DNA from: Escherichia phage T5
Sequence record: NC_005859.1
DNA: 64,000 bases
Direction: 5' to 3' (one strand)
Shown: positions 6 to 64,000 of the stretch, in pieces
How the letters are laid out: each line of letters begins with the position of its first letter
Position numbering within the stretch: the stretch's first letter is position 1
Position numbers and translations under genes: made by a program
The notes under the pieces: generated by a model
The model's input: the letters and a program-made list of their open reading frames with translations, nothing else
Databases searched by the model: none
What the model was told of the DNA's origin: nothing

Positions 6-344
6 ATGATTGTTGGGGTATCTTCATGGTTCTCTGTCAGGAATGAGATGGAGAACGTTCAGATTATGACCGGGTTAGGTCTTATAGACCGTTTTCTTGG
101 TACAACGGATTTTACTGGTGGTGGGCTATCTAGGGGTAATTCTGTTCTTCGCTTCGTTGAAAAGCATAAGCTCAAACATTGGTGTGTGCTGGATGATGCT
201 GGTGCTATGATGTATCAGTATCCAACGGTTATAGTCAATGGTAGAACTGGAATAAATCTTCAAGATTTAAGAGCTGTTAGCTATATGTTAGAATTTAGTC
301 CAGATCTTGAAATGTGTAAAGCCCTACAACAATTTAAGGTGTAA
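6..344 (+). CDS. hypothetical protein (may be 5'-truncated by window edge)
   Basis: 112-aa ORF; tightly packed with downstream gene (stop 344, next ATG 347). Confidence 0.45.
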   Translation: MIVGVSSWFSVRNEMENVQIMTGLGLIDRFLGTTDFTGGGLSRGNSVLRFVEKHKLKHWCVLDDAGAMMYQYPTVIVNGRTGINLQDLRAVSYMLEFSPDLEMCKALQQFKV

Positions 345-1794: not shown

Positions 1795-4581
1795 GTGTTT
1801 TCTATCCTCCAAGGTCACGCCGGATTTTCTCGTGATTTAGCAACAGGTATTTGGCGAGAAATCAAAGCGGAAGATTATACCTTTGCCAAGCGATTCTCGA
1901 AAGAGCATCCAGAAGGTAAACCAGCTTCTATGCCCTTCAAATTTGATGTAATAGAAGAGCACGACCCACAAAGCCTTGCCGAAATGTTACCCCTCATGAG
2001 ACGTTTAACGTCTGACCCTCATATCGTTGCGGTGCGAGGTCGATGTCTCGCACCTAAAAATAATGTGCGACGTAAGAAAGGTAACTTTAATGTATCTAAT
2101 CCTAGTAATATTATTGCTATGGACGTGGATGGTATCCTAGATACCGGTGGGTATGACAAATTTAATCTTGTTGGTATGGCCCGCCACATTATTAAGATGT
2201 TGAATAGTATTAGTGAGGATATGTTTCCTCTTGATGCAGGGTTTATTGCTCATGCATCGTCTTCGGCTGGGCTAAAACCAGGTATCCGAATGCACTTAAT
2301 GCTAGAATCTAACGTCAAGGTAACTCAGGGTCAGCTAAAGTTCTTATTTACATCTATCAACGATAGTAGTAAGCAAAAATTTGGTTTTGATATTGCCGAC
2401 CTAGCTTATTATTCATCTGTCCAGCTCCACTATTTTGCCGACCCCTTATTTAGCGATGGTATTGTTGATCCGTTTAAAGCGGAGAGTAAGCCACGTCTGG
2501 TGTATGTTAAAGGTTCGAAAGTAAATTTGCCCAATAATCTGGTTGACTATGAAACAACTAGAGGGGAGTTTAAGGAAGAGTTTTATTCTTTACTTGATCA
2601 AATTAAAGGCAAAAAGATTGCTTCTGATAAAGTAGAAGAAACCATCAGCGAGTTAGAAGAGGCTGATGATGGAGTGTATTTGCGTATTATCCCCAAACTA
2701 TACCATAGAGCATTAGAGGATGGTGTTGATTTTGCATGGCTAGAACGTGAGATTAAACCAGCTTTATCTGAATATATTGCAACTAAAGATAACAGTCGTA
2801 ATATTCAAGATTACTTTAATAACGGTCGTAAGCAGGCTCTCAAAGCGTTTGTTAATAATTCTAAACGTGAGATTCCATTAAATCTGAAAGGTGTTCCACT
2901 TAAGAAATTAGAAGTGGATTCTCCACCAGAAGTTCCATACCTGAAGATTAACATTGTGCCCCCAAAAGGCCATATAACATTTGTTAAGGCAAGTCTTGGT
3001 ACTGGTAAAACTACGGCAGTAACTAAATGGCTGGACGCAGGTGTTCTTCCAGGCAACTTTTTAGCAGTTACAAATACTAGAGCACTGGTATCTTCAAATG
3101 CCAAGAAATTTAGTGCAGGACAATACGATAAGTCTGTAGATATGCTCAACTTTAAACGTGGAGCTATCGATCGTATGTCCACAACTATTCACTCTTTGCA
3201 TAAGTTCAAAAGTTTTATTGGGCAAATAGACACCATTTTTATTGATGAATGTGACGCTGTAATGAATGACCTATTATTCGCCCCTGTTGTTAAACAACGT
3301 CGCGAGTGTATTCAAGTTCTACGTGACATCCTTATGACAGCTAAGACTGTAATCTTATCCGATGGTGATATTAGTGCTGAGACGATTGAAGCATATGGTT
3401 CTCTAATTGATTTTGATAAACCAGTAGCATTTTATAATCATCACCGTAAAATGCTGTCAAAAGCACACGCTTATGAGTTTCCTGATGAATCCAGTATTTG
3501 GGTTGCACTTCAGACTTCTCTAGAGATGGGTGAGAAATCTATTCTAGTATCTGATTGTGGCCCGGATGAGCTGAATGAGAAGGGTATGGCACTGCGTCGT
3601 AATACGGGTGCGTTAGTTAAGGAAATCCATTCAAACTCCACCTCAGATGTGGATATTCGACGTATTCTGGATTATACAACTAATGAGCTAATTGATCAAC
3701 AAATTGATTGCTTATTATGTAGTCCATCCGTAACGAGTGGCGTTGACTTTAACTATTTCGATAATGTGTTTGTTATTACTAGAACCAGTAATCAAGCGCC
3801 AAACATGCGTTTCCAAGCAATCAGGCGCGACCGTGGTGCCCAGAACATCTATTATTTTATTGATAAATCTACGAGTGGATTCTCTGCAGGTTCTGAGCAA
3901 TATAATATTGATGAAGGTTGGCTGGAGTTAGCACAGCAATTATACGCACGTCGTAGAGAGCTGGAATCTAGAAACTATACTAGTACCTTACGTTATTATT
4001 TGCTTGATCAGGGTGCAACTATTGATATTTTCAGCGAAAGCTGGGGAACTATTGAAGGTGCTGGTAAAGAATATACAGAAGAGCGAATCAAAGCTATTCT
4101 GCATTCAACTCCAGATTATTGTGCCCCACGTCATGCAGATGCATATGAAGCTAAACTACTTCTTGTTCGCTATTATCATCTTGAGTCTATTAAAGATGTA
4201 ACAGTTGAGCATGTCGAACAATATATCAAAGATAAACCGAATGATCGAGCTGCATTCTTCCATAAGATGCACGAGATGTTCTGGGAAGATATTAAGAAGT
4301 GTTCAAATGTGACCATTAAACCATTCATAGAGGCTCTGAAAGGTAAGAAGAAAGACTTCTTCCTTAAAACAGGTCAGAGTGCCAACCCAAAATATGCTAG
4401 AATGTATCTTGGTATGATGGGTATTGGTAAGGATATGAACACTGAAAATATTGTAGACTGGTACAGAACCTATTGTAAAATCGAGTGTATGCCAATTCCT
4501 TTCAAATTCATGACAGAGGAAGAGAGGGCTATGGCAGAAGAAGTAATGTCCGAACTTGGAGCAACTAATGAAGATGCATAA
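1795..4581 (+). CDS. large P-loop ATPase, putative replication/origin-binding helicase-like protein
   Basis: 928-aa ORF, GTG start with RBS aggag; Walker A LGTGKTT; Walker-B-like FIDECD. Confidence 0.7.
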   Translation: MFSILQGHAGFSRDLATGIWREIKAEDYTFAKRFSKEHPEGKPASMPFKFDVIEEHDPQSLAEMLPLMRRLTSDPHIVAVRGRCLAPKNNVRRKKGNFNVSNPSNIIAMDVDGILDTGGYDKFNLVGMARHIIKMLNSISEDMFPLDAGFIAHASSSAGLKPGIRMHLMLESNVKVTQGQLKFLFTSINDSSKQKFGFDIADLAYYSSVQLHYFADPLFSDGIVDPFKAESKPRLVYVKGSKVNLPNNLVDYETTRGEFKEEFYSLLDQIKGKKIASDKVEETISELEEADDGVYLRIIPKLYHRALEDGVDFAWLEREIKPALSEYIATKDNSRNIQDYFNNGRKQALKAFVNNSKREIPLNLKGVPLKKLEVDSPPEVPYLKINIVPPKGHITFVKASLGTGKTTAVTKWLDAGVLPGNFLAVTNTRALVSSNAKKFSAGQYDKSVDMLNFKRGAIDRMSTTIHSLHKFKSFIGQIDTIFIDECDAVMNDLLFAPVVKQRRECIQVLRDILMTAKTVILSDGDISAETIEAYGSLIDFDKPVAFYNHHRKMLSKAHAYEFPDESSIWVALQTSLEMGEKSILVSDCGPDELNEKGMALRRNTGALVKEIHSNSTSDVDIRRILDYTTNELIDQQIDCLLCSPSVTSGVDFNYFDNVFVITRTSNQAPNMRFQAIRRDRGAQNIYYFIDKSTSGFSAGSEQYNIDEGWLELAQQLYARRRELESRNYTSTLRYYLLDQGATIDIFSESWGTIEGAGKEYTEERIKAILHSTPDYCAPRHADAYEAKLLLVRYYHLESIKDVTVEHVEQYIKDKPNDRAAFFHKMHEMFWEDIKKCSNVTIKPFIEALKGKKKDFFLKTGQSANPKYARMYLGMMGIGKDMNTENIVDWYRTYCKIECMPIPFKFMTEEERAMAEEVMSELGATNEDA

Positions 4582-5086
4582 ACCAATGCCTCCTATGGCA
4601 TTTATCCTAGAAAAGCTTAGGTATGACGAAAGTACCGGGGACTTAATTTGGTTATCTGGCCCAAGGAAGGGAAAGGTGGCGGGCTCCAAAATGAAAACTG
4701 GAAGACAGTTAGAGTTTACGATAAATGGGGAGCGGACAGCTTACTTAGCCCATAGAATAATCTGGTTTATAAAGACAGGCGAAGATCCTGGGGATAAAAC
4801 TATCGACCACAAAGACGGTGATAGTTTAAACAACTTGTGGGATAATTTACGTAAGGCTACCTATTCCGAAAATGGAAAGAATAAGAAGTGTTCTACTAAT
4901 TCTACCGGATTCACTGGAGTTGTAAAACGAGGTAATAGATATATGGCCTACGCTTACTGCGAGGGAAAGCAGCATATTTTTGGTAGACGAGATACCCCGG
5001 AAGAAGCCCATCAGCTATACCTTAGGGGAGTTAAAGAACTGTTTGGTGAATTTAATCCCTCGGAGAGATATGACAGTGAAGAATAA
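4556..5086 (+). CDS. HNH homing endonuclease with AP2-like DNA-binding domain
   Basis: 176 aa; AHRIIW...IDHKDGDSLNN..NLR.AT..EN HNH motif; C-terminal TGFTGV..RGNRYMAY AP2-like segment; start overlaps preceding gene. Confidence 0.75.
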   Translation: MEQLMKMHKPMPPMAFILEKLRYDESTGDLIWLSGPRKGKVAGSKMKTGRQLEFTINGERTAYLAHRIIWFIKTGEDPGDKTIDHKDGDSLNNLWDNLRKATYSENGKNKKCSTNSTGFTGVVKRGNRYMAYAYCEGKQHIFGRRDTPEEAHQLYLRGVKELFGEFNPSERYDSEE

Positions 5087-9567: not shown

Positions 9568-10327
9568 ACTGAACTGGAACGTAGAAGGTGTAACCGAGTC
9601 TCTGAAAGCAAAAGCCACTGCTCTGGGTGTTGATGTAATCTCTCAAGAACAAGTAGCTGCTATCGCTGCTGAACTGGCTGCTGAAACTGGCAAAGACGTT
9701 ACCGCTCGCTCTGTTGGCTCTAAGCTGCGTAAAGAAGGTTTCGAAGTACAGAAAGCTAACGAAGTACAGAAATCCCCGTGGACTCCTGAGCAGGAAGCTG
9801 AACTGGTTGATTTCCTGAACGCTCATGCTGGTCAGTATACTTATGCTGAAATCGCTGCTGCTGTAGCTGGTGGTCAATTTGGTGCTAAGCAGGTACAGGG
9901 TAAGATCCTGAGTCTGGAAATGACAGCATCTGTTAAGCCGACCGAAAAAGCTGCCGCTGTTCGTTCCTTCACTCCGGATGAAGAAACTGACTTTGTTAAT
10001 CAGGTTGTTGCTGGTGCTACTATTGAAGCTATCGCTGCTCACTTCGGTCGCAATATTAAGCAGATCCGTGGTAAAGCTCTGAGTCTGCTTCGTGAAGGTC
10101 GTATCGCGGCTATGCCGGTACAGGAAACTTCAAGTGCTAAAACTCGTGAAGATCTGCTAGAAGGTCTGGATCTGGTTAACATGACCGTTGCTGAGATCGC
10201 TGAGAAAACTGGTAAGTCTGAGCGTGGTGTTAAATCTATGCTGTCTCGTCGTGGTCTGGTTGCTAAGGACTATGATGGTGCCGCTAAGCGTGCTAAACTG
10301 GATGCAAAAGCTGCGGCTGCTGAATAA
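9560..10327 (+). CDS. hypothetical abundant protein with internal repeated HTH-like modules
   Basis: 255 aa; strongly optimised codon usage; repeated ~45-aa units (TPEQEAELVDF / TPDEETDFVNQ / MTVAEIAEKTGKSERGVKSML). Confidence 0.7.
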   Translation: MSKLNWNVEGVTESLKAKATALGVDVISQEQVAAIAAELAAETGKDVTARSVGSKLRKEGFEVQKANEVQKSPWTPEQEAELVDFLNAHAGQYTYAEIAAAVAGGQFGAKQVQGKILSLEMTASVKPTEKAAAVRSFTPDEETDFVNQVVAGATIEAIAAHFGRNIKQIRGKALSLLREGRIAAMPVQETSSAKTREDLLEGLDLVNMTVAEIAEKTGKSERGVKSMLSRRGLVAKDYDGAAKRAKLDAKAAAAE

Positions 10328-53204: not shown

Positions 53205-53311
53205 TGGAATGGGTAATTATTGCGTTGCTAGGGGTTGTGATTATTGGACAATGTATTTTAGATAATCACTTAGCTAGAATTGAAACTTTATTAACGGAGA
53301 AGCGTAAATGA
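53204..53311 (+). CDS. small membrane protein (35 aa)
   Basis: hand-translated MEWVIIALLGVVIIGQ...; ATG overlaps upstream stop (TAATG). Confidence 0.4.
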   Translation: MEWVIIALLGVVIIGQCILDNHLARIETLLTEKRK

Positions 53312-53502
53312 TGGAAGTAGTAGCTATAATAACAGTAATACTAGTCTGGGCAATTTTCATTGCTTCTTGCACCGTGTACGTTCGCCTAAAAACTCTAGAA
53401 GCTCAAGTAAAACAACAACAATTTGCTATAGAAAAATTAGTAGAACTCCAACGTTGTGATAGCATTCGTATTCTGCAAATTGAGAGGGAATTAGATGTTT
53501 AG
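53308..53502 (+). CDS. small membrane protein (64 aa)
   Basis: N-terminal transmembrane helix then coiled region; start overlaps upstream stop. Confidence 0.5.
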   Translation: MMEVVAIITVILVWAIFIASCTVYVRLKTLEAQVKQQQFAIEKLVELQRCDSIRILQIERELDV

Positions 53503-53740
53503 CATTATAGTTGCTTTTATTATCGGAATAATCGCGGGAGTTTTCGGAATGACTGCGGCTATTAACAAGCATCGTAAATACATTGCGGAAGTATCGCGGG
53601 AGATTGCGGAAAGGGAGCGGAAGTTTGACGAAAAACGTGCGGAGTTTGAGCGGGAGTGGTCGGACGGTTCTCGGGCGTCGCGGAAGAGATTCCGTGAGTT
53701 CAGACCAAAATACGGAGTTGATGACCATTCTATGCGCTAA
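53495..53740 (+). CDS. small membrane protein (81 aa)
   Basis: N-terminal transmembrane helix then charged ER-rich tail; start overlaps upstream stop. Confidence 0.5.
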   Translation: MFSIIVAFIIGIIAGVFGMTAAINKHRKYIAEVSREIAERERKFDEKRAEFEREWSDGSRASRKRFREFRPKYGVDDHSMR

Positions 53741-53850
53741 TTGGGAAATCTCGAAATTTCATAAGATTACACATGAAGGTGTGTCCACTGCCTCCGGCGA
53801 AAATACTTAGTCTGCTAACCGCCACCCCCGTTACTATTACCATGCTAACT

Positions 53851-53887
53851 GTTTCACCCTGCAACCATTTTAATTGCAGGGTGAAAC
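53851..53887. other. perfect 14-bp-stem hairpin at late / pre-early junction
   Basis: gtttcaccctgcaa - ccattttaa - ttgcagggtgaaac; no adjacent U-tract. Confidence 0.6.
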
Positions 53888-53904
53888 AATTTCAACTTTA
53901 ATTA

Positions 53905-54639
53905 TTACGCAACTTTTAATTTCTCAATATATTGTTGCGGGCTGCAACTATATTCTGCGCGTTCTTCTTCGGTCATACCTTCCCAACATAATTGCAGGCG
54001 GTCGGCTAGGAACTGATAATCATTATCATCCTCAAGAGATTCATCAATAAAGGTTTCACCTATCAATGTCACGCCGATTGATAGAATATCATTAACGGCT
54101 TGTGCGTCCAGCGTTTTAAATCCGTATGACGCTGCCGCTGATAGCACGCCTTTATGATCATCAATCATTGTAAAATCAGCGTTCGGATATAATTGTTTGA
54201 ATAGCCCAAAATAGTAACTTTTATAAACTGCGTCTTTGCTGTGGTATATCTCGCTAACTTTATCAGCCTCAAAATATTTGTGTAGTGTATCGCGGGAAAA
54301 TACACGGATATTACTATCACCACGACCGCGCAACCCTTGTTTACGCAAATAATAATAGTCCGACTTGCTCATTAGTCGAGCGGTGCAAATAATGTTTAAA
54401 GTATTTGCGTCATTCATGCACTGGCGCATATATGTAACAAGGGGCAATAGTGTATCTTGCATTATTAAATCATGTTTGCAGGCTTCATTTTTATACTTAT
54501 TTAAATCTAAATTGCCCTCGCTATCAAAGCAAGGCGCTACACGATGAAACGAATTAATGATAGTGCCGTCCAGATCCCAAATCATGACGCGGGAAATATG
54601 CGGGAAATTACGGGTAATATTCGTTTTAACTTGATTCAT
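53905..54639 (-). CDS. dmp: 5'-deoxyribonucleotidase (HAD family), Dmp-like
   Basis: 244 aa; HAD motif I IWDLDGT; terminal-repeat-like position next to A1. Confidence 0.75.
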   Translation of the reverse strand: MNQVKTNITRNFPHISRVMIWDLDGTIINSFHRVAPCFDSEGNLDLNKYKNEACKHDLIMQDTLLPLVTYMRQCMNDANTLNIICTARLMSKSDYYYLRKQGLRGRGDSNIRVFSRDTLHKYFEADKVSEIYHSKDAVYKSYYFGLFKQLYPNADFTMIDDHKGVLSAAASYGFKTLDAQAVNDILSIGVTLIGETFIDESLEDDNDYQFLADRLQLCWEGMTEEERAEYSCSPQQYIEKLKVA

Positions 54640-54719
54640 TTTGTTACGTTCTCCATTTGAGGGATTAGATTAATTCAGCATTACCCGCTATTAAATAGCG
54701 GGTAATAATAAATTAACTA

Positions 54720-55115
54720 TTAAAGGCCATACGCTAGCGCATCAGCGATAAAACTAACATCCTCGCCCGATACGCTGGAACGAATGCCAGCGCATGTATA
54801 CACCTTTGCGCTCATTAGCTGATCATCAAGGCAAGCGGGGCAAGGTGCGACTACTGCGAAAGCTAAACCGGATTTTACCGCGTCAATAATGATTGTTTCC
54901 TGTTTCATAGTGTCAACATAAACACCTTTTGCTTTAATATGGCTTGTTAGTTTGCCCTGCATATATGCAAACGTTGTAACTTGCATCGCGTCATTGAAAT
55001 CTAATAGCTCATCAATAACGTGACCGGCCTCGACGTGATAACGCTGACCATTAGAATAAACCAGAACAATAGAAGACTGAGCGCGATCGAATGGGATACG
55101 GTTAGATTTAGCCAT
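54720..55115 (-). CDS. hypothetical pre-early protein
   Basis: 131-aa ORF between dmp and A1. Confidence 0.55.
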   Translation of the reverse strand: MAKSNRIPFDRAQSSIVLVYSNGQRYHVEAGHVIDELLDFNDAMQVTTFAYMQGKLTSHIKAKGVYVDTMKQETIIIDAVKSGLAFAVVAPCPACLDDQLMSAKVYTCAGIRSSVSGEDVSFIADALAYGL

Positions 55116-55151
55116 GTTTATAACTCCAATTAGTTTAATAAGGGATTTAAT

Positions 55152-55430
55152 TTATTTGCTAGCTTCAAGACTTACAACAAAAGCGAGATTTGTTTCTTTC
55201 CATACGTCAGGAATATCATTTTCCTGTAAATGGTCTTTCGCTTCATACTCATTTTCAAAAGAATAAAAATCGCCGGACTCAATTATATAAATATGCCCGT
55301 TTAGTTCATTTTGATAAATATAACAATTATTATCTTTTAAATTGCGGTATACAGTACCATGCCGTAAAACATCAAGCGACCATGTATCAGCGGTGTTTTT
55401 CATGCTGGGAAGATTAATTTTAATAGCCAT
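55152..55430 (-). CDS. hypothetical pre-early protein
   Basis: 92-aa ORF. Confidence 0.5.
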   Translation of the reverse strand: MAIKINLPSMKNTADTWSLDVLRHGTVYRNLKDNNCYIYQNELNGHIYIIESGDFYSFENEYEAKDHLQENDIPDVWKETNLAFVVSLEASK

Positions 55431-55486
55431 TTAATTTAGCTCCTGTAATAGCGGCTATATCTCAAGCCGCTAGGGGAATAATTTAA

Positions 55487-57157
55487 TTACGCAAAGAATT
55501 TACCATTCTTAAAGTCAATCAAAGTGCGTTGACCGTTTGCATAGGTAATAATATGCGTTTGAGTCCAGCTAGACGCGCCAACGTTGTAACCCATGTCCAG
55601 ACTACCAGTCACGCCAGCGGTATAAACGCCGCCGTAAATGCTGGCGGTGTGGGTGTGTCCGGTGTTTAATTTGCCCAATTTCTTAAACTGTTTCGGGTTG
55701 CCACGGCTCCCGTTAATGCCGTTGTGACCGTGTACGCCGCATTCAATGCCTGCAATCTTGAAAGATTGGTCAGTGGTCAGGAAAATGGCGTTAAATTCAC
55801 AGCCTGCAACCTTGCGCAGCGCATAATCAAGCACGTTAAAAGTATCGTCTTTTTCTGCAATAGCTCCATAAATCGCAGCATTCAGGCGGTGATATAGTTC
55901 CGCGTTTGCTGGGTCGTCTTTAATGTTAGCATTACGATCATCTAACCAGCGGGATAGCGCCAGATCATGATTAGATTCAACAATGATTGTTTGAGAAAAA
56001 TCACGCTCCATTGATTCCAGTACGCGCCCCGTATCGATAAGATCATCTAATACCTTATCACGTCCGGCGGCATATTGTTTCGCTAGGAATACGCCAGATG
56101 CGCGGTTGTGATGGTTGCGTGATGTAAAATCATGCACGTCGTGTACAAACTGATATTTTGGTTTAAGAATATCAACAAGCCCGTAGGTGTCACCATGCCC
56201 CCAAGACGCAGCGGCGCACTCCTCATCTAATTTTTCAGCGTGAATGTCGCCATATTGTAAACCTAAAACGTGCCCCGTTGTTTCATAACATCCGGCAGGA
56301 GTGGCGCAAGTATTCAAATCATAAAACACGCCGCTCTCGTCCATCGTTTCAAGCTGGCGCACAAAAAACTCACCGTCCTCGTCAAACTCAACAATAAGCG
56401 CACCGAAGTTATGCAGCGCCTCGGCCTTTTGTCCTGCTTTCTGCTGGATGTAATTTTTTAGCGTTGCCGTTCCGGTTGAATACATACGGCGCACAATTTC
56501 ACCTTTTAAAGCTGGCACGCTTTCGGCGGTGATTTTAGCCGCTCCAATTGCTAGACCTTCAAGATTCAGCGCGGTTGCAGTTTCAGCGAATCCAGAAAGC
56601 GGATAATCTGCGGTGGGTAAAACGTTAATTTCAGCCATGAAAGCAAATCGGCGATTATTTAAAAACACGTTTTTATTGCAGATATATTTGTCAAATGCGG
56701 AATCGTATCTGATACCGTCGGCGCCCTCGCCATTTTGAAAACCGTTTTTGTTATAGATAAACTTGCTAACCAGCAAATCAGCGCCGATAAATTGGGCGTA
56801 TTGTTCAAGTGAGGCTAAAAAGTTTTTATGCGGGAACGTATTATTCTGAATCGATGTAATAATAAAGCGTTTACCTTGTTTTACTTCCCATTGCTCAACC
56901 GTGCTAGAAACAATCCCCGCCGCTTCTGGGCGCTCATCGTTTTTAATGGCTTTTGCTACTTTCGCCGCTTTCGGTTTCGCTGGTTTATTTGCTTCCAGCC
57001 AGTCACAAATTGCGGTAGAGTGTTTTGTTGTATCGTAAACCATTTTTGAAATATCGTCGCAAACTTCCAATTTAGTAGCGCGCAGACGTTTACCGTAGAA
57101 ATTAAAGTCAGCGGCCATTTTCAGGATAACGGTTTGTTTTTCTGCGGAAATAACCAT
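55487..57157 (-). CDS. A1: A1-like pre-early protein with metallophosphoesterase domain
   Basis: 556 aa, same length as T5 A1; calcineurin-like motifs GDIH, GDTYG, ESNHD, GHNG, HTHT in C-terminal half. Confidence 0.75.
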   Translation of the reverse strand: MVISAEKQTVILKMAADFNFYGKRLRATKLEVCDDISKMVYDTTKHSTAICDWLEANKPAKPKAAKVAKAIKNDERPEAAGIVSSTVEQWEVKQGKRFIITSIQNNTFPHKNFLASLEQYAQFIGADLLVSKFIYNKNGFQNGEGADGIRYDSAFDKYICNKNVFLNNRRFAFMAEINVLPTADYPLSGFAETATALNLEGLAIGAAKITAESVPALKGEIVRRMYSTGTATLKNYIQQKAGQKAEALHNFGALIVEFDEDGEFFVRQLETMDESGVFYDLNTCATPAGCYETTGHVLGLQYGDIHAEKLDEECAAASWGHGDTYGLVDILKPKYQFVHDVHDFTSRNHHNRASGVFLAKQYAAGRDKVLDDLIDTGRVLESMERDFSQTIIVESNHDLALSRWLDDRNANIKDDPANAELYHRLNAAIYGAIAEKDDTFNVLDYALRKVAGCEFNAIFLTTDQSFKIAGIECGVHGHNGINGSRGNPKQFKKLGKLNTGHTHTASIYGGVYTAGVTGSLDMGYNVGASSWTQTHIITYANGQRTLIDFKNGKFFA

Positions 57158-57253
57158 AATAATAAAACTCCATTAAAGGGATTAAAAAACGTTTGTTATT
57201 GGCAATATTGCCAAATATAACGCCTTGAATAATAGGCGTTATAATTTGCAACA

Positions 57254-57451
57254 TTAATTTAAAGGCATAAGGCTAGAACTAACACCACAAGCAACGGCGG
57301 CAATAAAACAAATCAGACCTAAACGCTTTGCTAACTTAGATTTACGTTTAAAATAATACGAATCTAAATCATTTTGAAAATAAGCGAACAATAACGAGGC
57401 CGCCATAATAAACAAGCCTAGAATGAGGGATTCAGTAGGGTAAAAGATCAT
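57254..57451 (-). CDS. small membrane protein
   Basis: 65 aa with two hydrophobic helices. Confidence 0.45.
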   Translation of the reverse strand: MIFYPTESLILGLFIMAASLLFAYFQNDLDSYYFKRKSKLAKRLGLICFIAAVACGVSSSLMPLN

Positions 57452-57507
57452 TTTAAAACTCCAGTCAAAGGGAAATTATAGTGGGGAATATTCCCCACTA
57501 ATTAAAT

Positions 57508-57915
57508 TTATTCGCCTGCGGCTTGTTTTACTTCATCGGCAACGCCTAACAGTTGCGCCACGGCGTCCAGCGTTTCCAATTTTGCACTTTCCAGTGATGC
57601 CAGATCGTCAGCGTCTTTGATAATACCGGAATCGATGGCATGTTTTGCAATCACACGCACGTAGTGCGCTTTGCGGATAGAACTGCCGCCGCCAACCTTG
57701 CGAGGTTTATCGCTTTTCTGATACGCTTTCGCGCTGGTCAATTTTGAGCGAACAGACACGGGAGAAGCCGCGCCAACTGCTTTTGCAATCTCTTTTAAAC
57801 CGTCGCTATTTGCGAAATCTAAACCGTTTTCATTAATTAACTGCTGGTACATGGAAACAGCTTTCTGAGTGTTTTCTTCATTCCAAGCGAATTTTGCGGT
57901 TTTAGCGTTAGTCAT
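57508..57915 (-). CDS. A2: A2-like pre-early DNA-binding protein
   Basis: 135-aa ORF immediately after A1 in transcription order; size and position match T5 A2. Confidence 0.65.
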   Translation of the reverse strand: MTNAKTAKFAWNEENTQKAVSMYQQLINENGLDFANSDGLKEIAKAVGAASPVSVRSKLTSAKAYQKSDKPRKVGGGSSIRKAHYVRVIAKHAIDSGIIKDADDLASLESAKLETLDAVAQLLGVADEVKQAAGE

Positions 57916-58010
57916 GATGTAACTCCTGTTTATTTAATTTAAGGGATAAGATTAACATAATGTTAATCGTTATATCCCCCGAACTACTGGGGGATATAAA
58001 AGTAACACTA

Positions 58011-58262
58011 TTACGCTACGGCTTCCCATTTTTCGTTACGCTGGGCAACCTTTACAACGTCGCCGGATTTAACCCGAACGTTGTAAACAGTTTTTCCGTT
58101 GTTACTCCGTTCCGTTTCAGCGTATACCGCATCAATTACATCAAACGGCATAAGCGCCGCGCCTTTAATGCGTTCGGTTTTTCCGGTTACCTCATCCGTT
58201 TTAGTAACGAAAGGGATAAAAACGGATTGACCAATTTTTGGCGCAGTAGTAACGTTTTGCAT
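58011..58262 (-). CDS. hypothetical protein
   Basis: 83-aa ORF; GC-richer codon usage like the A1/A2 block. Confidence 0.5.
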   Translation of the reverse strand: MQNVTTAPKIGQSVFIPFVTKTDEVTGKTERIKGAALMPFDVIDAVYAETERSNNGKTVYNVRVKSGDVVKVAQRNEKWEAVA

Positions 58263-58495
58263 AATATAAACTCCAGTTTATTAAGGGGGATTGTTCCGCA
58301 TTACCTGCTGTAAAAGTAGTGGCAGGTAATAAGCAACAATCCGCTCGCCAATATAATCAATTTAAAGAACTCCACTCAGGCCGCTATATCCCAGTTAGGG
58401 GGCGGGACACATTATGGTAAGTGCCGACCGTCATATTTTATCAAGTTATCGCTCTCATCGAACTGGGTACATCTTAAAGCCTATCGGCTAGGGTG

Positions 58496-58699
58496 TCAAA
58501 CTATTTTTTGCAGTTTTTTATGATTTTCTTTCAAGTCAATCATAATGTTTCGCCAGATCATTTCCAGACCTTGCTGGCGGCCTTTCTTGTACTGCCTAAA
58601 TCGATATTTTACCGATTGCTGGGCTATTGTCAACAATTTTTTAGTAGTACCATCTAATTTTTTAGCTGGTTTACCAGTGATCAATAAAGTTTGTTTCAT
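58496..58699 (-). CDS. hypothetical basic small protein
   Basis: 67-aa Lys/Arg-rich ORF in an otherwise non-coding stretch. Confidence 0.3.
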   Translation of the reverse strand: MKQTLLITGKPAKKLDGTTKKLLTIAQQSVKYRFRQYKKGRQQGLEMIWRNIMIDLKENHKKLQKIV

Positions 58700-59191
58700 A
58701 TCGTCGATTCCTTATAATATATAAGTTTACCGCCGATAGACTTTAAGATGTACCCAATTTTTAAAGAGCGTGGCGGTAAACTTCCCGCCGTGTAGTTCGT
58801 CATTGCCGCCCTACGAGATAAATAATAGGGGATACCCAAAAATGGCGCAACCTTATTTTTGTAAAGAAACGTAAAGAAGGCAACACGTCCGGCGCTCACC
58901 TAAGTTTAAAGGAAACGGGCGCGCGAATACCATAAAACCTAGCAGGTTGGCAAGTAATTTTTTCCTTTATATTTGCCTTGCCCTAGTTGACAAATCTTAG
59001 AAAGCTCGTGGTGACGATAAACGGGTTATCCCCTTATGATGGGATGCCTGAAAAATTTACCGCGTCAGAAAGCGTTTTAGGCGGCTTATTTTCGATTTAA
59101 CAAATATTTAACAAAAGCAAAATTGAAAAATAGTTGGAAAAGATATTGACTTTTAAAAATCAAGACTAAACGAGTTATTTTATAAAATTAA

Positions 59192-59710
59192 TTAATTGAC
59201 AATTCCAAATTCAGCTTTTTTAGTTTCTACCCATAATAATAACTCTTGTAAATCATAACCTGATTTACTAACACTTTTGTTACTAGTAGGATCTTTAACT
59301 ATAGCGCGCAAATAGTTTCTTCCGTTATTATCAACTCTAGAACCATTATAATAGATATGCTTAGGCAACTTATTAGCACGCTTATAATCTTTCTTGTTAT
59401 TCATATTCTGCTTATGGTCTACTAAGCGAAGATTATTAATGTTATTATTAGCACGGTTACGATCATTATGATCGATTGTTAGATTGCTATCAATCTCACC
59501 ATTAAATAATACCCATATTATTCTATGCACTGCGTATTGTTCGCCTGCTAACTTTACTCGATAGTAACCTGTGTTACTATAATGCCCTGCAATATCACCC
59601 ACCTTACTATTACCTTTCTGTACTTTCCATCTTAGAAATGATGGGGATGTTTCATCATAATAAAAGTTATCATTAGCAAGCGAATAATCTATATCTTTAA
59701 ATAGACCCAT
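59192..59710 (-). CDS. HNH homing endonuclease with AP2-like domain
   Basis: 172 aa; AVHRIIW...IDHNDRNRANNNINNLR...HKQN HNH motif; third member of the family at 4556 and 11864. Confidence 0.7.
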   Translation of the reverse strand: MGLFKDIDYSLANDNFYYDETSPSFLRWKVQKGNSKVGDIAGHYSNTGYYRVKLAGEQYAVHRIIWVLFNGEIDSNLTIDHNDRNRANNNINNLRLVDHKQNMNNKKDYKRANKLPKHIYYNGSRVDNNGRNYLRAIVKDPTSNKSVSKSGYDLQELLLWVETKKAEFGIVN

Positions 59711-59876
59711 TGTTATAGTTTCCTTATGTTATTAATTTAATCTCTATTATATTATATCAAAACCATTAGCAAACTACCTAATGAGTTTTTCAGGTTTAAT
59801 TAGCAGACTCATAATCACTTTAAAATCCTATTAGCCAACTAACTATATTTTGTTATATAATAACTGCATAAATTAG

Positions 59877-60010
59877 TTAGTGAGAAACACTATCATTTAA
59901 GTTATCCACAGCCTTATACATTTTGTAAATTAACTTGACACAATAGGAAGGCTTTATAGCACTTTTACACAGACTTATCCACAGGTTATTCCACTGTATA
60001 AATATACAGG
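59877..60010. repeat. left arm of ~130-bp imperfect inverted repeat, with DnaA boxes and 16-bp palindrome
   Basis: TTATCCACA at 59903-59911 and 59975-59983; palindrome ctgtataaatatacag 59994-60009; reverse complement aligns by eye with 63192-63320. Confidence 0.65.
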
Positions 60011-60275
60011 GTAAATGGAAAACATATTATAATGATGCCCAAAATAAGCGGCCTAAAACGCTTTCTAACGAGCAAAACGCTATAGGGTAATATTAAAGTA
60101 AAGCCTCAACGCGTCGCCCTGGTGGCTTCGCCGTGTTTTGCTCTTTACTATACCGCTGCGCGGTTAGCATAAAACTAGGCGCTAGGCAAGGAAAATAAAA
60201 AGGTAAAATAATATTTGCCTATGCTAGAAAATTACCTTTATCATTCACTCACCGATTAACGAGGGAGGCCAACAA

Positions 60276-61286
60276 ATGCGGCTATATAAACCAGATAACG
60301 CAACCGTCTTAAAGGGCGCCTTGCGCAACCTGCTGGATGGTAGCAGGACAACCAGCATTAAACATTTTATTAACAAGGCTGAAACTATTCACCAAAACTT
60401 TTTTAATGATTATGATGCCTATGATATGGATAGTTTTCTACCCCTATATAAGCAGGGGGCAACGATTATCTTATATAATCGTGATTGCCATATCTTTACG
60501 GGCAGGGGAGCGGGGCCGGATACTGATTTTATTGTTGCGCAGGGTAATAATATCGTTGCGTATCATAGCAATTCAGGCCGTCAATCATTTAATATAAATA
60601 ATTTTGAGCTTGTTGGGCTTGAATTAATAAACGGACTTTCTAGCCTTGAGGGATTTTTAGATGTTATCTGGAAGTATTTATCTGCTGGATGGCATAGACC
60701 TGATAGTGATGGATCTCAATATACGGCTGTAATGGCTTTTGATGGCGACGGTAATTTTTTATTACCATCGGAATTATATCCGTATGTATATAATGAGCTA
60801 GTACAAGAAGCGGGTTTTATTTTCTGGAAAGATGAGAATCAGATCATTGACAACACGGAAAAACATGCTGTAAATTCTAACACTCAAAGCGTTAACACTC
60901 AAATCACTGAAAACAAAGGAAAAAATGCCATGACCAAGATCGCTAATATCGTTGCCGCTAATAAATCCGCCGTTGTAAATGCTGCAAAACTGGAAGCGGG
61001 CAAAATTGCATTAACTCAAATCACGAAAGTAGCGGCTAAAAAAGCACCATTTATGATTAAAGGTTATATTGATACGCCTATTGGTCGGGTAGTTATTGCT
61101 AACCTGCTGAGCGTAGCGGTTGACCAGTACGCCCCTAGCAACCAAAAGGCGAAAGCGGTAGCGGGTGCAGCTATGGAAGCGGCTATGCTAGAAATGGTGC
61201 AAAGTTTTAACATCGCTGAAATGATTGATGAAATGGTGAAAGGTATTGATATTTCTACTTTTACCGTTAACACCGAAAGCGAGTAA
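60276..61286 (+). CDS. hypothetical protein (336 aa), first gene of inverted-repeat-bounded cassette
   Basis: RBS gagggagg; mixed alpha/beta N-terminal domain, Ala-rich helical C-terminus. Confidence 0.65.
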   Translation: MRLYKPDNATVLKGALRNLLDGSRTTSIKHFINKAETIHQNFFNDYDAYDMDSFLPLYKQGATIILYNRDCHIFTGRGAGPDTDFIVAQGNNIVAYHSNSGRQSFNINNFELVGLELINGLSSLEGFLDVIWKYLSAGWHRPDSDGSQYTAVMAFDGDGNFLLPSELYPYVYNELVQEAGFIFWKDENQIIDNTEKHAVNSNTQSVNTQITENKGKNAMTKIANIVAANKSAVVNAAKLEAGKIALTQITKVAAKKAPFMIKGYIDTPIGRVVIANLLSVAVDQYAPSNQKAKAVAGAAMEAAMLEMVQSFNIAEMIDEMVKGIDISTFTVNTESE

Positions 61287-61314
61287 TAATTAACCTAATG
61301 TAAAGTTTTGTAAA

Positions 61315-61340
61315 GGTCGCCATAATCGGCGGCCTTTTTT
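61315..61340 (+). terminator. possible terminator/attenuator
   Basis: short GC stem (tcgcc/ggcgg) followed by CCTTTTTTG. Confidence 0.35.
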
Positions 61341-61404
61341 GTTATAATGCCTTTACACCGTTTGAGGACGGTTGAAAATTTTCCCAAAATTTTGGAGGCT
61401 TAAA

Positions 61405-61635
61405 ATGGTTGCTTATTCTTCTTCTGACGCTCTTTTCACTGGAAAAGGCTGGGTATCAAATCGCTGGATCATTCAAGAAATGGTGCAGGAGTTCGGCATT
61501 GCTAAAACTTACACTACCATTCAGGCGCTTTATGATAATGATCAAATCGATCAGCAAACGGCGGGCTTTTTGCTGGATACCCTGAAAGCGGAACACTGTA
61601 CTAAAAAACAAGCCGCCAAAATTGTTTTAATGTAA
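61405..61635 (+). CDS. hypothetical protein
   Basis: 76 aa from ATG with RBS ggagg 6 nt upstream (track start 61372 is TTG). Confidence 0.55.
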   Translation: MVAYSSSDALFTGKGWVSNRWIIQEMVQEFGIAKTYTTIQALYDNDQIDQQTAGFLLDTLKAEHCTKKQAAKIVLM

Positions 61636-61684
61636 TTAATAACGGGGCGTTACTTTCGCCCCACTAACTAGGGGAGTATTACAA

Positions 61685-61849
61685 ATGGTTATTTTTCGAG
61701 CTATTCTGGCAGGTATCTTGGGCGCTATTCTGACCCTTTTTGCTACCGCTTACGGTATTCAAGATTCTTATTGTGGTTTAGTAAATACTAAACCTATGGT
61801 TATTATTGGCGCGGGTATCGCTGTATTTTCTTATCTGCTGGGCTGCATG
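61685..61849 (+). CDS. small membrane protein (54 aa)
   Basis: hand-translated MVIFRAILAGILGAILTLFATAYG...; RBS gggag; not in ORF track. Confidence 0.35.
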
Positions 61850-61866
61850 AATAAAGGAGAATAAAA

Positions 61867-62079
61867 ATGATCCGCAACGTTTCTCTTGCTCGTTCAAAGG
61901 GTTTTAAGCTGGTGGATGTTAACACATTCGAGCGGGAAGATTGTAAAATCGAATATGTAGCACGTAATAAAAACGCCTTTCGTGTTACAGAAAAGAAATT
62001 TGATAAGCGCGGCAACGTGATAGCTGAAACGGTTAAACATTTTGCCACCTTTTACGCGGCTTTTCGTGGAGTGTTATAA
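61867..62079 (+). CDS. hypothetical protein
   Basis: 70-aa ORF, RBS aaaggaga. Confidence 0.55.
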   Translation: MIRNVSLARSKGFKLVDVNTFEREDCKIEYVARNKNAFRVTEKKFDKRGNVIAETVKHFATFYAAFRGVL

Positions 62080-62080
62080 A

Positions 62081-62425
62081 ATGGTAATTTATGAAGGCAA
62101 TCGCTTTGTTGCTATTTGCCGACCGGGATTATTAGCAAACTACTTAAATCAGGTGTCACCTGAATATAAAGGCGTCATTAATATTTATGAGGGCAAGGCG
62201 CATTATAAGATTAATGCGGTCGTTGCCCGTGAATTAGCATTTCAATTTTTGACTTTCGCATCTTGTGATATTCAGGTCATGGGTGAAGCGTTAATTGCAG
62301 AAAATGAAGATGATTTTATTAATATCTTCCGCAAGGTATACACCGAGCGCCTGATAATGAAAGGCGCATATATTCAGTCAACTGCGGAAAGTATTGAAAC
62401 AGCTTTCAGAAAGGTGGCGCAATGA
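62081..62425 (+). CDS. hypothetical protein
   Basis: 114 aa from ATG 62081 (RBS ggag), 1 nt after upstream stop. Confidence 0.55.
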   Translation: MVIYEGNRFVAICRPGLLANYLNQVSPEYKGVINIYEGKAHYKINAVVARELAFQFLTFASCDIQVMGEALIAENEDDFINIFRKVYTERLIMKGAYIQSTAESIETAFRKVAQ

Positions 62426-62440
62426 AGCTATATATTTTCG

Positions 62441-62719
62441 TTGGTAATGTTGAGGCTGCGAATGATTCCGCTGGTGGCGATAACGTTCGCCACTATTGGC
62501 AAAAATATATTTACTAGGGTTATTATGATTACACTGATTTGCGTTAAAGCCGAAGGCGACACGATAGCGCGAGAAGGGCAAAAATATAAAGCCCAAAAAG
62601 ATCAATTACTCAAAACAATTGAGCGTTACAAAATACCCGATCTCAAGTATTCCGTAGTAGGACGCGATGGGATTCTAAGGGCGACACTTGAGAACGCTAT
62701 CTTTGAGATAGTCAACTAA
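62441..62719 (+). CDS. hypothetical protein (start uncertain)
   Basis: track ORF begins with TTG; internal ATG at 62525 would give 64 aa. Confidence 0.35.
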   Translation: MVMLRLRMIPLVAITFATIGKNIFTRVIMITLICVKAEGDTIAREGQKYKAQKDQLLKTIERYKIPDLKYSVVGRDGILRATLENAIFEIVN

Positions 62720-62734
62720 TAACGGGGCGTTATT

Positions 62735-62938
62735 ATGAGCAATAAAATTATTGTGACCAAAACTACCACAATGGTAGACGTTTTTTATGTGCCCGATACG
62801 CCGGAGAATCGGGGAGCGGTCGAGCGGGGCGAGTATGATAGCGTTATTTATGATGCCGATGGTTATTATCAGCATTTGGTCGATTCCTACGGGGAAGAGG
62901 AGAAGATCACGCATCGATTACCCGAGGGGGATTTATGA
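62735..62938 (+). CDS. hypothetical acidic small protein
   Basis: 67-aa ORF. Confidence 0.5.
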   Translation: MSNKIIVTKTTTMVDVFYVPDTPENRGAVERGEYDSVIYDADGYYQHLVDSYGEEEKITHRLPEGDL

Positions 62939-63048
62939 AACGATGGTTTAATCACTGGTATAAACGGTTTTTAGTACGGCATCGCAAGTCTAGACAGCAA
63001 GATGATTGGCGGGAAATGGCAAAGCGTAACAATTGCCCACTTCTCTGA
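62935..63048 (+). CDS. small basic protein (37 aa)
   Basis: hand-translated MKRWFNHWYKRFLVRHRKSRQQDDWREMAKRNNCPLL; ATGA overlap with upstream stop; followed by terminator. Confidence 0.35.
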   Translation: MKRWFNHWYKRFLVRHRKSRQQDDWREMAKRNNCPLL

Positions 63049-63055
63049 TAACCGA

Positions 63056-63077
63056 CGGGGATCAGCTCCCCGTTTTT
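63056..63077 (+). terminator. rho-independent terminator closing the plus-strand cassette
   Basis: cgggga-tcagc-tccccg hairpin followed by TTTTT. Confidence 0.7.
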
Positions 63078-63191
63078 CACGCCTCCAGTTAAATCCCCCT
63101 TTGTTTTAGTATCCCCATCAAAATTAAACGCGTTAGAATGCGATCTAGGACGTTTTAGGCATATATTAGAATTATTCACTGCGTAGGAATA

Positions 63192-63320
63192 CTGTATAAA
63201 TATACAGTAGGATAACCTGGGGATAAGTCTGTTGATAACGCTTCAAAATGGCTAGGATTTTGTCAAGGCGAATCGTGCTGTTGATAAGTCTGTGGATAAC
63301 TTAAATAACAGTGTTTCTCA
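63192..63320. repeat. right arm of inverted repeat, with DnaA-box cluster and 16-bp palindrome
   Basis: palindrome ctgtataaatatacag 63192-63207; DnaA-box-like 9-mers (rc TTATCCACA at 63291-63299; variants at 63209-63239 and 63279-63287); tail cttaaataacagtgtttctcac mirrors the left arm. Confidence 0.65.
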
Positions 63321-63323
63321 CTT

Positions 63324-63480
63324 CCGTTTTTAAATACGAATCATTATCATTCGTATTCCGCTTTTTAAATGAGAATCATTCCGCTTTTTAAATGAGAATC
63401 ATTTCACTTCCTGAATAGTTCTCATTCCCTTTCTTAAATGAGAATCATTATCATTTGCATTTCACTTTTTAAATGAGATT
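63324..63480. repeat. array of ~22-bp direct repeats (CCGCTTTTTAAATGAGAATCATT)
   Basis: two perfect tandem copies 63358-63403 plus three degenerate copies; each holds the small dyad AATGA-n3-TCATT. Confidence 0.75.
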
Positions 63481-63509
63481 GATTCTCATTATCATTCGCA
63501 TTCAGGCGA

Positions 63510-63527
63510 GCAGGGCAATTGCCCTGC
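63510..63527. other. perfect 18-bp palindrome
   Basis: gcagggcaattgccctgc followed by gcttttg. Confidence 0.7.
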
Positions 63528-63533
63528 GCTTTT

Positions 63534-63756
63534 GTGCAAATCCGACATTTGCCCCCATGGATTACGCGTGGGCGTGTATGTGCAAATCCGACAATTTTTG
63601 GTAGTGTGCGAATCCGACCCGAAAAATTTTTATAGTGTGCAAATCCGACAATGAATTTTCCCAAAAACTCCAGCAATCACGAACTGCGTTCGAATCCTGT
63701 GGAATTAGCTAGAGTATGTGCAAATCCGACATGTGTTGAGATGTGCGAATCCGACA
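63534..63756. repeat. iteron-like array: six copies of 14-bp GTGC(A/G)AATCCGAC(A/C)
   Basis: copies at 63534, 63580, 63606, 63646, 63718, 63743 with irregular 25-72 bp spacing, all same orientation, non-coding. Confidence 0.8.
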
Positions 63757-63892
63757 AGATTTTTGTGACTTCGATGGGAGGGTGTGTGATTGTATGGGTT
63801 TGAGGGGAAGATGAGAGAGCGAGAGAAATTTGGGAGGCTAGAAGGATATGGGCGCAGGATTGGTGCGGAGCACCTGATTTGCGGGGATTTTG

Positions 63893-63936
63893 GGGAAGAG
63901 TTGAGATAATTTGGGAAGATTTGAGATAGGTGCAGA
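63893..63936. repeat. purine-rich tandem repeat (TTTGGGGAAGAGTTGAGATA-like, 2 copies)
   Basis: within a strongly G+A-skewed plus-strand tract 63770-63940. Confidence 0.5.
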
Positions 63937-64000
63937 AAAAGTAAAATTTTATTAGCTAAAGGGGGCAAAATAGCTTGACAAGTGAAAATTTCTGTGGCTC

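Follow-up and report, generated by a model that had tools for sequence, protein, structure and literature searches.

A conserved stem-loop just inside the phage T5 terminal repeat, predicted to define and protect the 3' end of the leftward pre-early transcripts

We use sequence comparison, RNA folding and published annotation to study a hairpin in a 64,000-nucleotide stretch of phage T5 DNA (the window; positions are counted from its first base unless another record is named). The window corresponds to bases 57751-121750 of the 121,750-bp T5 contig in IMG/VR, as worked out from the positions of the dmp gene, and around the hairpin (53300-54500) it is 100% identical to phage T5 strain ATCC 11303-B5 (AY587007). 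The basic layout of the locus is collected in Table 1. From the left come the + strand genes ORF148-151, which encode small proteins and whose last stop codon is at 53740, and from the right comes the leftward pre-early transcription unit of A2, A1, ORF153 and dmp. A first, sequence-only reading of this DNA had placed the hairpin between a convergent small-protein operon and dmp, and the annotation confirms this arrangement, with ORF148-151 on the + strand and dmp on the − strand. Within the pre-early unit, A1 is a single 556-aa ORF at 55487-57157 (− strand), as it also is in AY692264. AY587007 annotates it otherwise, listing a shorter 'probable A1 protein' (1584 nt) and a separate 'A1 protein precursor', so the records differ in sequence or annotation across A1. 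The final 4263 bases of the window match the right end of the left terminal repeat of the T5 contig (that end was confirmed through IMG/VR locus L167), beyond which the contig runs on into unique DNA. The T5 genome therefore ends on the right at base 64000, as the sequence-only reading had supposed.

Table 1. Features at and around the hairpin, in window coordinates (^ marks the terminus)
Feature	Position	Strand	Description
ORF151	53495..53740	+	Last gene of the convergent llp-ORF148-151 unit; stop about 107 nt ahead of the hairpin
Boundary sequence	53741-53795	read on −	CCACTGGAC^ACACCTCCATGTGTAATCTTATGAAATTT; conserved
T5 right terminal repeat	53782..64000		10,219 bp; left-repeat position 1 aligns to 53782
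T5 diverged left-terminus element	53782..53832	−	GGGGGTGGCGGTTAGCAGACTAAGTATTTTCGCCGGAGGCAGTGGACA^; between hairpin and boundary
Full stem-loop in dmp-sense (pre-early) RNA	53847..53891	−	21 pairs, including 3 G·U
Hairpin left arm	53850..53864		TGTTTCACCCTGCAA; perfect complement of 53874-53888
Hairpin loop	53865..53873		9 nt; CCATTTTAA on the + strand, UUAAAAUGG in − strand RNA
Hairpin right arm	53874..53888		TTGCAGGGTGAAACA; pairs with 53850-53864
dmp (5'-deoxyribonucleotidase)	53905..54639	−	Last gene of the leftward pre-early operon; stop 13-16 nt upstream of the stem-loop
Pre-early operon intergenic palindromes	54670-54716, 57204-57255, 57479-57500, 58288-58342		In the leftward operon

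On the + strand, bases 53851-53887 read GTTTCACCCTGCAA-CCATTTTAA-TTGCAGGGTGAAAC. The hairpin had been described as a perfect 14-bp stem around a nine-nucleotide loop; the sequence and the loop stand, and the stem is one pair longer, at 15 bp. If one C·A mismatch is allowed it grows to 18 bp and spans 53847-53891. Read as + strand RNA, the hairpin remains at 15 bp and folds with −21.6 kcal/mol (z −7.2). Read as − strand RNA, the 37-mer folds with −24.9 kcal/mol (z −8.2), or −30.8 in context; here the loop is closed further by U·G, U·G and A-U pairs down to an AAA triloop, and the base of the stem gains one U·G pair, for a total stem of 21 bp. The hairpin is beyond chance expectation: it is the only perfect stem of at least 14 bp with a loop of 3-20 nt in the 64-kb window, and 100 dinucleotide-preserving shuffles produced no 14-bp stem at all and a mean of 0.1 12-bp stems per window. 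Several simpler identities for this DNA were considered and rejected. A scan of 53600-54100 against Rfam 15 returned sub-threshold chance matches only, the best being mir-3036 at 25.6 bits against a gathering threshold of 70 (a chance match to a long hairpin), and membership of a curated RNA family is rejected on that score. A sigma-70-like promoter match overlaps the hairpin at 53895..53867 on the − strand (TTGAAA, a 17-nt spacer and TAAAAT, 10/12, with the −10 hexamer in the loop); it is treated as chance because the −10 hexamer is lost in relatives that carry the type-B stem described below. Two small ORFs that span the hairpin (53773-53901 on the + strand and 53730-53864 on the − strand) are annotated in no record and are taken as spurious.

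The sequence-only reading had further proposed that a terminal repeat of about 10.1 kb starts exactly at the hairpin, near 53.86 kb. Alignment, one of the refuting tests which that reading had itself named, rules this out. The first base of the repeat is 53782, which puts the hairpin 69 bases in, at positions 70-106 of the repeat. In the T5 contig the left-end locus ends in ...GGCAGTGGACA, the reverse complement of the window from 53782 on, and the annotation of both AY587007 and AY692264 starts the right repeat 69 bases ahead of the hairpin. In phage BF23, whose repeats were determined with PhageTerm, the boundary aligns to the same base as 53782 of T5 (...ACACATGAGGATG / TGCTCACTGCC in BF23 and ...ACACATGAAGGTG / TGTCCACTGCC in T5, with the boundary at the slash), and the MM-1 boundary is 1 base off this position. 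For several other relatives, too, the left end as deposited lies within this conserved stretch, CCACTGGAC^ACACC, and the termini of T5, BF23, MM-1, HdH2 and chee24-like phages, whether deposited or called by PhageTerm, agree within 1-2 nt. A repeat boundary at the hairpin itself is thus ruled out by the left-repeat alignment, by the annotations of three records and by the PhageTerm boundary of BF23. A small inverted repeat, ACAC-n6-GTGT, lies just outside the repeat at the boundary sequence.

The earlier figure of 53.86 kb came from assuming a 10,139-bp repeat, which is its length in AY587007. In the present record the repeat is 10,219 bp long because of about 80 extra bases near 59384-59445, where the pieces of the alignment to AY587007 lie about 60 bases apart. 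The extra segment is flanked by the near-repeat TTATTAGCACG(C/G)TTA and amounts to a single indel between the two records; Tandem Repeats Finder reported nothing at this site, which is not a tandem array. The suggestion that the hairpin might be a nicking site fares no better than the boundary. The repeat has its annotated major nicks at 9661-9668 and 121274-121281 of the record, about 9.6 kb from the hairpin, and GCGC, which we take to be the T5 nick motif, is absent from the hairpin sequence. We therefore reject a single-strand nick site here.

What does lie at the boundary is a separate and strongly conserved terminal element, apparently undescribed. In relatives of T5 it reads GGGCGGTAATGAGACTCATTCTCAT...CCACTGGAC^ACACC and is distinct from the hairpin. 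At T5-like left termini it forms a module of about 65 nt, made up of GGGGCGGTAATGAGACTCATTCTCAT(Y)T, a GC-rich block of about 12-20 nt and CaCCCCcaCACGT-ACAACTT, and its GGGGCGGTAATGAGACTCATTCTCAT(Y)T part holds a 7-bp inverted repeat, AATGAGA-n5-TCTCATT. The exact 16-mer GGGCGGTAATGAGACT, whose T5 equivalent is GGCGGTTAGCAGACT, has 106 matches in IMG/VR, many of them in marine metagenome contigs; in deposited genomes it lies 27-42 nt from the contig end, and it was located in relatives L049-L154 (for example at 3683-3698 in L049 and 40-55 in L072). A literature search for the 12-mer GGTAATGAGACT found no paper that contains it. We regard the terminal element as a candidate site for recognition by terminase or in terminus formation. 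One marine viral contig of 78.7 kb (L062) carries the element at 4872-4887, just upstream of a terminase small-subunit gene (3628-4281, − strand; phrog_3802, E 6.5e-39), and a dmp-like phosphatase gene (phrog_415) diverges on its other side; L082 is similarly divergent. These two layouts imply that the element travels with packaging genes in phages unlike T5 in arrangement. At the other end of the T5 repeat, in the injection-stop region, palindromes AATGAGAATCATT / AATAGTTCTCATT at 63391-63449 and 63430-63500 resemble the AATGAGA...TCTCATT of the left-terminus element. Because of this resemblance, one DNA-binding factor may recognise both repeat ends.

We now return to the hairpin and ask how closely it resembles a transcription terminator. 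The stem is as strong as an intrinsic terminator calls for (15-21 bp, −21.6 to −24.9 kcal/mol, z below −7), and its position suits one as well, 13-16 nt past the dmp stop codon and about 107 nt past that of ORF151. The tail is a different matter. A U-tract is typically required to hold, for example, at least 5 U in the 8 nt directly 3' of the stem, and a consensus terminator scan of the T5 window lists the hairpin on neither strand, the U-tract falling short. The − strand tail of T5, AGCAUGGUAA, has 2 U in 10 nt and the + strand tail has 4 in 10, so the earlier observation that this is not a classical intrinsic terminator holds. Across relatives, the dmp-sense tail carries 1-3 U in 10 in all 15 dmp-adjacent hairpins tabulated and 4-5 in 10 in two metagenome and Vibrio contexts; a U-tract on the dmp-sense side is found in no lineage. 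The + strand tail varies over 3-7 U in 10 and is weak in T5 at 4, with canonical tails (6-7 in 10) in phi3 (UUUUUUAUU), in DU_PP_V and in one Salmonella group (L037-type). Over the 78 nt immediately before the hairpin, the T5 + strand RNA is rich in C and poor in G (C/G 2-3), a composition that resembles a Rho loading site. Taken together, the element looks asymmetric: nearer to a terminator in the rightward direction and, leftward, nearer to a hairpin that protects the 3' end of the pre-early mRNA.

The hairpin has been annotated before. In AY587007 both repeats have a + strand regulatory feature named 'putative rho-independent terminator', at 69..105 and 111683..111719, and the second of these corresponds to window 53851-53887, base for base over all 37. 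The hairpin is thus already public, and it is real, conserved and ordinary in kind. The AY587007 entry gives no stated evidence and uses the + strand, whereas our comparisons favour mainly the − strand, dmp-sense RNA; its label 'rho-independent' also differs from what we find, in that the classical U-tract is missing. The Davison preprint on the T5 left repeat leaves the hairpin unmentioned, and our literature search found neither a map of T5 transcript 3' ends nor any account of the hairpin or the terminal element. ARNold, run on BF23, calls no terminator at the corresponding site, which is consistent with the missing U-tract.

To see which properties of the hairpin are retained, we gathered the DNA that follows dmp from 38 IMG/VR loci and six distant Demerecviridae. 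Every collected sequence that includes the region has a strong hairpin soon after the dmp stop codon, and in all lineages compared it lies 57-65 bp from the left terminus. The site is shared and the stems are unrelated, falling into at least five sequence types: type A of T5, type B, a Klebsiella type, two Pectobacterium types, that of Vibrio phi3 and a long Providencia hairpin. The type-B stem-loop, AATAGTCACGGTGTGT-AATGATA-ACATGCCGTGACTATT (ATAGTCACGGTGTGT...), occurs in chee24-like phages and many Salmonella phages, and the equivalent stems in the type B, Klebsiella, Pectobacterium and Vibrio homologues are 10-16 bp long. Types A and B share the flanks GTTGAAAT... and ...TTAGC, which implies that the upper stem was swapped as a cassette. 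Unrelated stems at one site indicate that selection has acted on shape and not on a recognition sequence. In MM-1 (L157, locus about 750-790) the stem is of the T5 type and the 9-nt loop is inverted, reading GCAATTAAAATGGTTGC in the + orientation of the window; such a flip is what recombination between the arms of a palindrome would be expected to produce.

Quantitative inspection of the two alignable types shows that pairing is kept while sequence changes. In type A (12 distinct sequences) 96.4% of cells are paired, and in type B (9 distinct sequences) 99.3%, with three pairs changed on both sides in each type; shifting the partner columns 1-3 positions out of register leaves 27-52% and 20-53% paired, respectively. 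Scoring the reverse complement of the same helices gives 80.2% (type A) and 88.9% (type B), so that the structure is 96-99% paired in the sense RNA versus 80-89% in the antisense, as expected of a protective 3' stem-loop in the sense transcript. The difference comes from the cells that depart from Watson-Crick pairing: in the dmp-sense strand 11 helix positions have G·U and 1 has A·C (an A·C there being a would-be G·U in the antisense strand), counts which, like those of covariation, rest on few independent events among closely related sequences. BF23 adds one further sense-strand U·G, and MM-1 is a counter-example, its flipped loop removing two loop-proximal sense-strand G·U pairs. Because this wobble pattern would be pointless for a DNA duplex, a cruciform or + strand RNA, selection appears to act on the dmp-sense (window minus) RNA.

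The same bias is seen in three of the other intergenic palindromes of the pre-early operon, a series in which AY587007 names two as 'palindrome A' and 'palindrome B'. In those at 54670-54716, 57204-57255 and 58288-58342 the C·A mismatches of the + strand are G·U pairs on the − strand, with none of the G·T type, and the first of them folds with −25.1 kcal/mol on the − strand versus −20.3 on the + strand. No clear U-tract accompanies any of the pre-early intergenic palindromes. The mismatch pattern suggests intercistronic RNA stem-loops in the pre-early transcript.

If the hairpin serves transcripts, it should follow the direction of the neighbouring genes, and this can be examined in contigs that carry the terminal element. 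Where an ORF reads toward the element and ends at most 80 nt away, a strong hairpin nearly always lies between the two, and the median best 50-nt fold is −21 kcal/mol over all convergent contigs versus −9 where the genes diverge, in a comparison that is rough and phylogenetically non-independent. Given the stronger folds in convergent contigs, the hairpin goes with transcription that runs toward the element and not with the element itself.

On balance, then, the hairpin probably works as an RNA stem-loop that sets and shields the 3' ends of the dmp/A1/A2 messages transcribed leftward from the pre-early operon, a function predicted from comparison of sequences. The dmp-sense transcript would carry a 21-bp stem with an AAA triloop that starts 13-16 nt past the dmp stop codon. 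Classical intrinsic release of E. coli RNA polymerase is unlikely, since no U-tract follows the stem. In first-step transfer there are only 69 bp of template beyond the hairpin, and the polymerase would run off; on a right repeat or a concatemer something else would have to stop it further on. Exonucleases working 3' to 5' would then trim the transcript back to the hairpin, so that the 3' end of the mRNA would be both fixed and protected. On a right repeat or a concatemer the palindrome also faces the llp-ORF151 unit, where it probably limits read-through into dmp/A1 antisense, given the 15-bp hairpin, the C-rich, G-poor leader and the weakly U-rich tail on that strand. The hairpin would then probably act as a two-way barrier between the pre-early operon and the convergent llp unit. 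The sequence-only reading had named a bidirectional transcription barrier among its options; that option comes close to the best-supported reading, in which run-off, trimming, protection of the 3' end and any termination activity are the parts that we infer. The terminator annotation of the same 37 bases in both repeats of AY587007 supports a role at transcript ends, and the counterpoint is that the only U-rich tail lies on the + strand, which speaks for termination on that strand, at least as a co-function. The flipped loop of MM-1 and the missing ARNold call in BF23 also count against the reading.

Known systems offer two points of comparison. In E. coli, protective 3' stem-loops act as exonuclease barriers at ends that arise by run-off or by Rho-dependent termination and trimming. 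The T5 hairpin is like them in being stable, in lying just past the last stop codon without a U-tract and in having a conserved sense-strand structure; it differs in that the left-repeat template ends 69 bp downstream, so that the ends would come from run-off and not from Rho. With bidirectional intrinsic terminators it shares a single palindrome between convergent genes, here ORF151 and dmp, and some relatives of T5 have an A-rich 5' flank that amounts to a U-tail on the other strand. Unlike those terminators, it has a dmp-sense U-tract in no lineage, and its + side is weak in T5.

Several other readings share parts of this evidence. That the hairpin is solely a + strand terminator of the llp-ORF148-151 unit, stopping antisense entry into dmp/A1 and playing no part in the pre-early mRNA, we consider unlikely. 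The strand given in AY587007, the confinement of U-rich tails to the + strand (canonical in several relatives) and the Rho-loading-like leader all speak for it, but the T5 tail misses the standard U-tract, and on the + strand the wobbles become C·A mismatches, which lower pairing to the antisense values given above and in type B open a 2x2 internal loop. Moreover, the left repeat has no outside rightward transcription running into the hairpin during first-step transfer, and the hairpin follows the end of dmp family-wide, even where the downstream neighbours differ. A quite improbable reading is that of an RNase III processing or retroregulation site, comparable to the T7 early-region sites or to lambda sib, in which cutting of the double-stranded stem would control decay of the pre-early mRNA. 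RNase III calls for double-stranded RNA that is nearly unbroken over some 20 bp or more, a length that the sense-strand stem of T5 reaches, and several similar intercistronic palindromes lie along the operon; however, the relatives' stems, at 10-16 bp, are short for the enzyme, and a T7-type internal loop is missing.

Readings at the level of DNA start from the location. We think it very improbable that the palindrome is a terminus element, acting as a palindrome or cruciform for terminase, for a nickase or in duplication of the terminal repeat. It does keep within 57-65 bp of the left terminus in all lineages and adjoins the highly conserved terminal element, and the flipped loop of MM-1 shows that it recombines as DNA. 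Yet neither the boundary nor any annotated nick falls at the hairpin, the stem is replaced wholesale between lineages while the adjacent terminal element is kept, a bias of G·U over A·C is meaningless in duplex or cruciform DNA, and the hairpin is weak or absent where genes diverge from the same terminal element. A more elaborate version, for us a long shot, would make the palindrome a working DNA part of a left-terminus module composed of the hairpin, GGGCGGTAATGAGACTCATTCTCAT, the GC-rich block and the cut site. If it were true, a cruciform or hairpin might aid the final cut by terminase, or the hairpin might prime the duplication of a 10-kb repeat that is present once at a concatemer junction, as proposed for T7. 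For T7, Chung, Nardone and Hinkle reportedly proposed in 1990 that an inverted repeat near the concatemer junction forms a hairpin intermediate in repeat duplication. The two cases are alike in having a palindrome near the terminal-repeat boundary of a phage with exact direct terminal repeats; they differ in that the T7 inverted repeat is reported to lie outside the terminal repeat, whereas the T5 hairpin is inside it, varies freely in sequence and has an RNA-type wobble bias. Finally, we give next to no credence to a chance or selfish palindrome without function: against it stand the shuffles, none of which gave a 14-bp stem, and the compensatory changes and positional conservation across Demerecviridae.

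What the role of the hairpin at the 3' end of the pre-early transcripts would mean for T5 can be stated briefly. Transcript-end hairpins are routine and this one carries little weight as a discovery; the value of the analysis is in its corrections and refinements. The first mRNAs of the infection come from the injected 8% of T5 DNA, and the element gives a specific picture of how their 3' ends would be made beside a free DNA end. The terminal element at the true repeat boundary is the more promising lead for work on the cutting and renewal of termini in T5-like phages.
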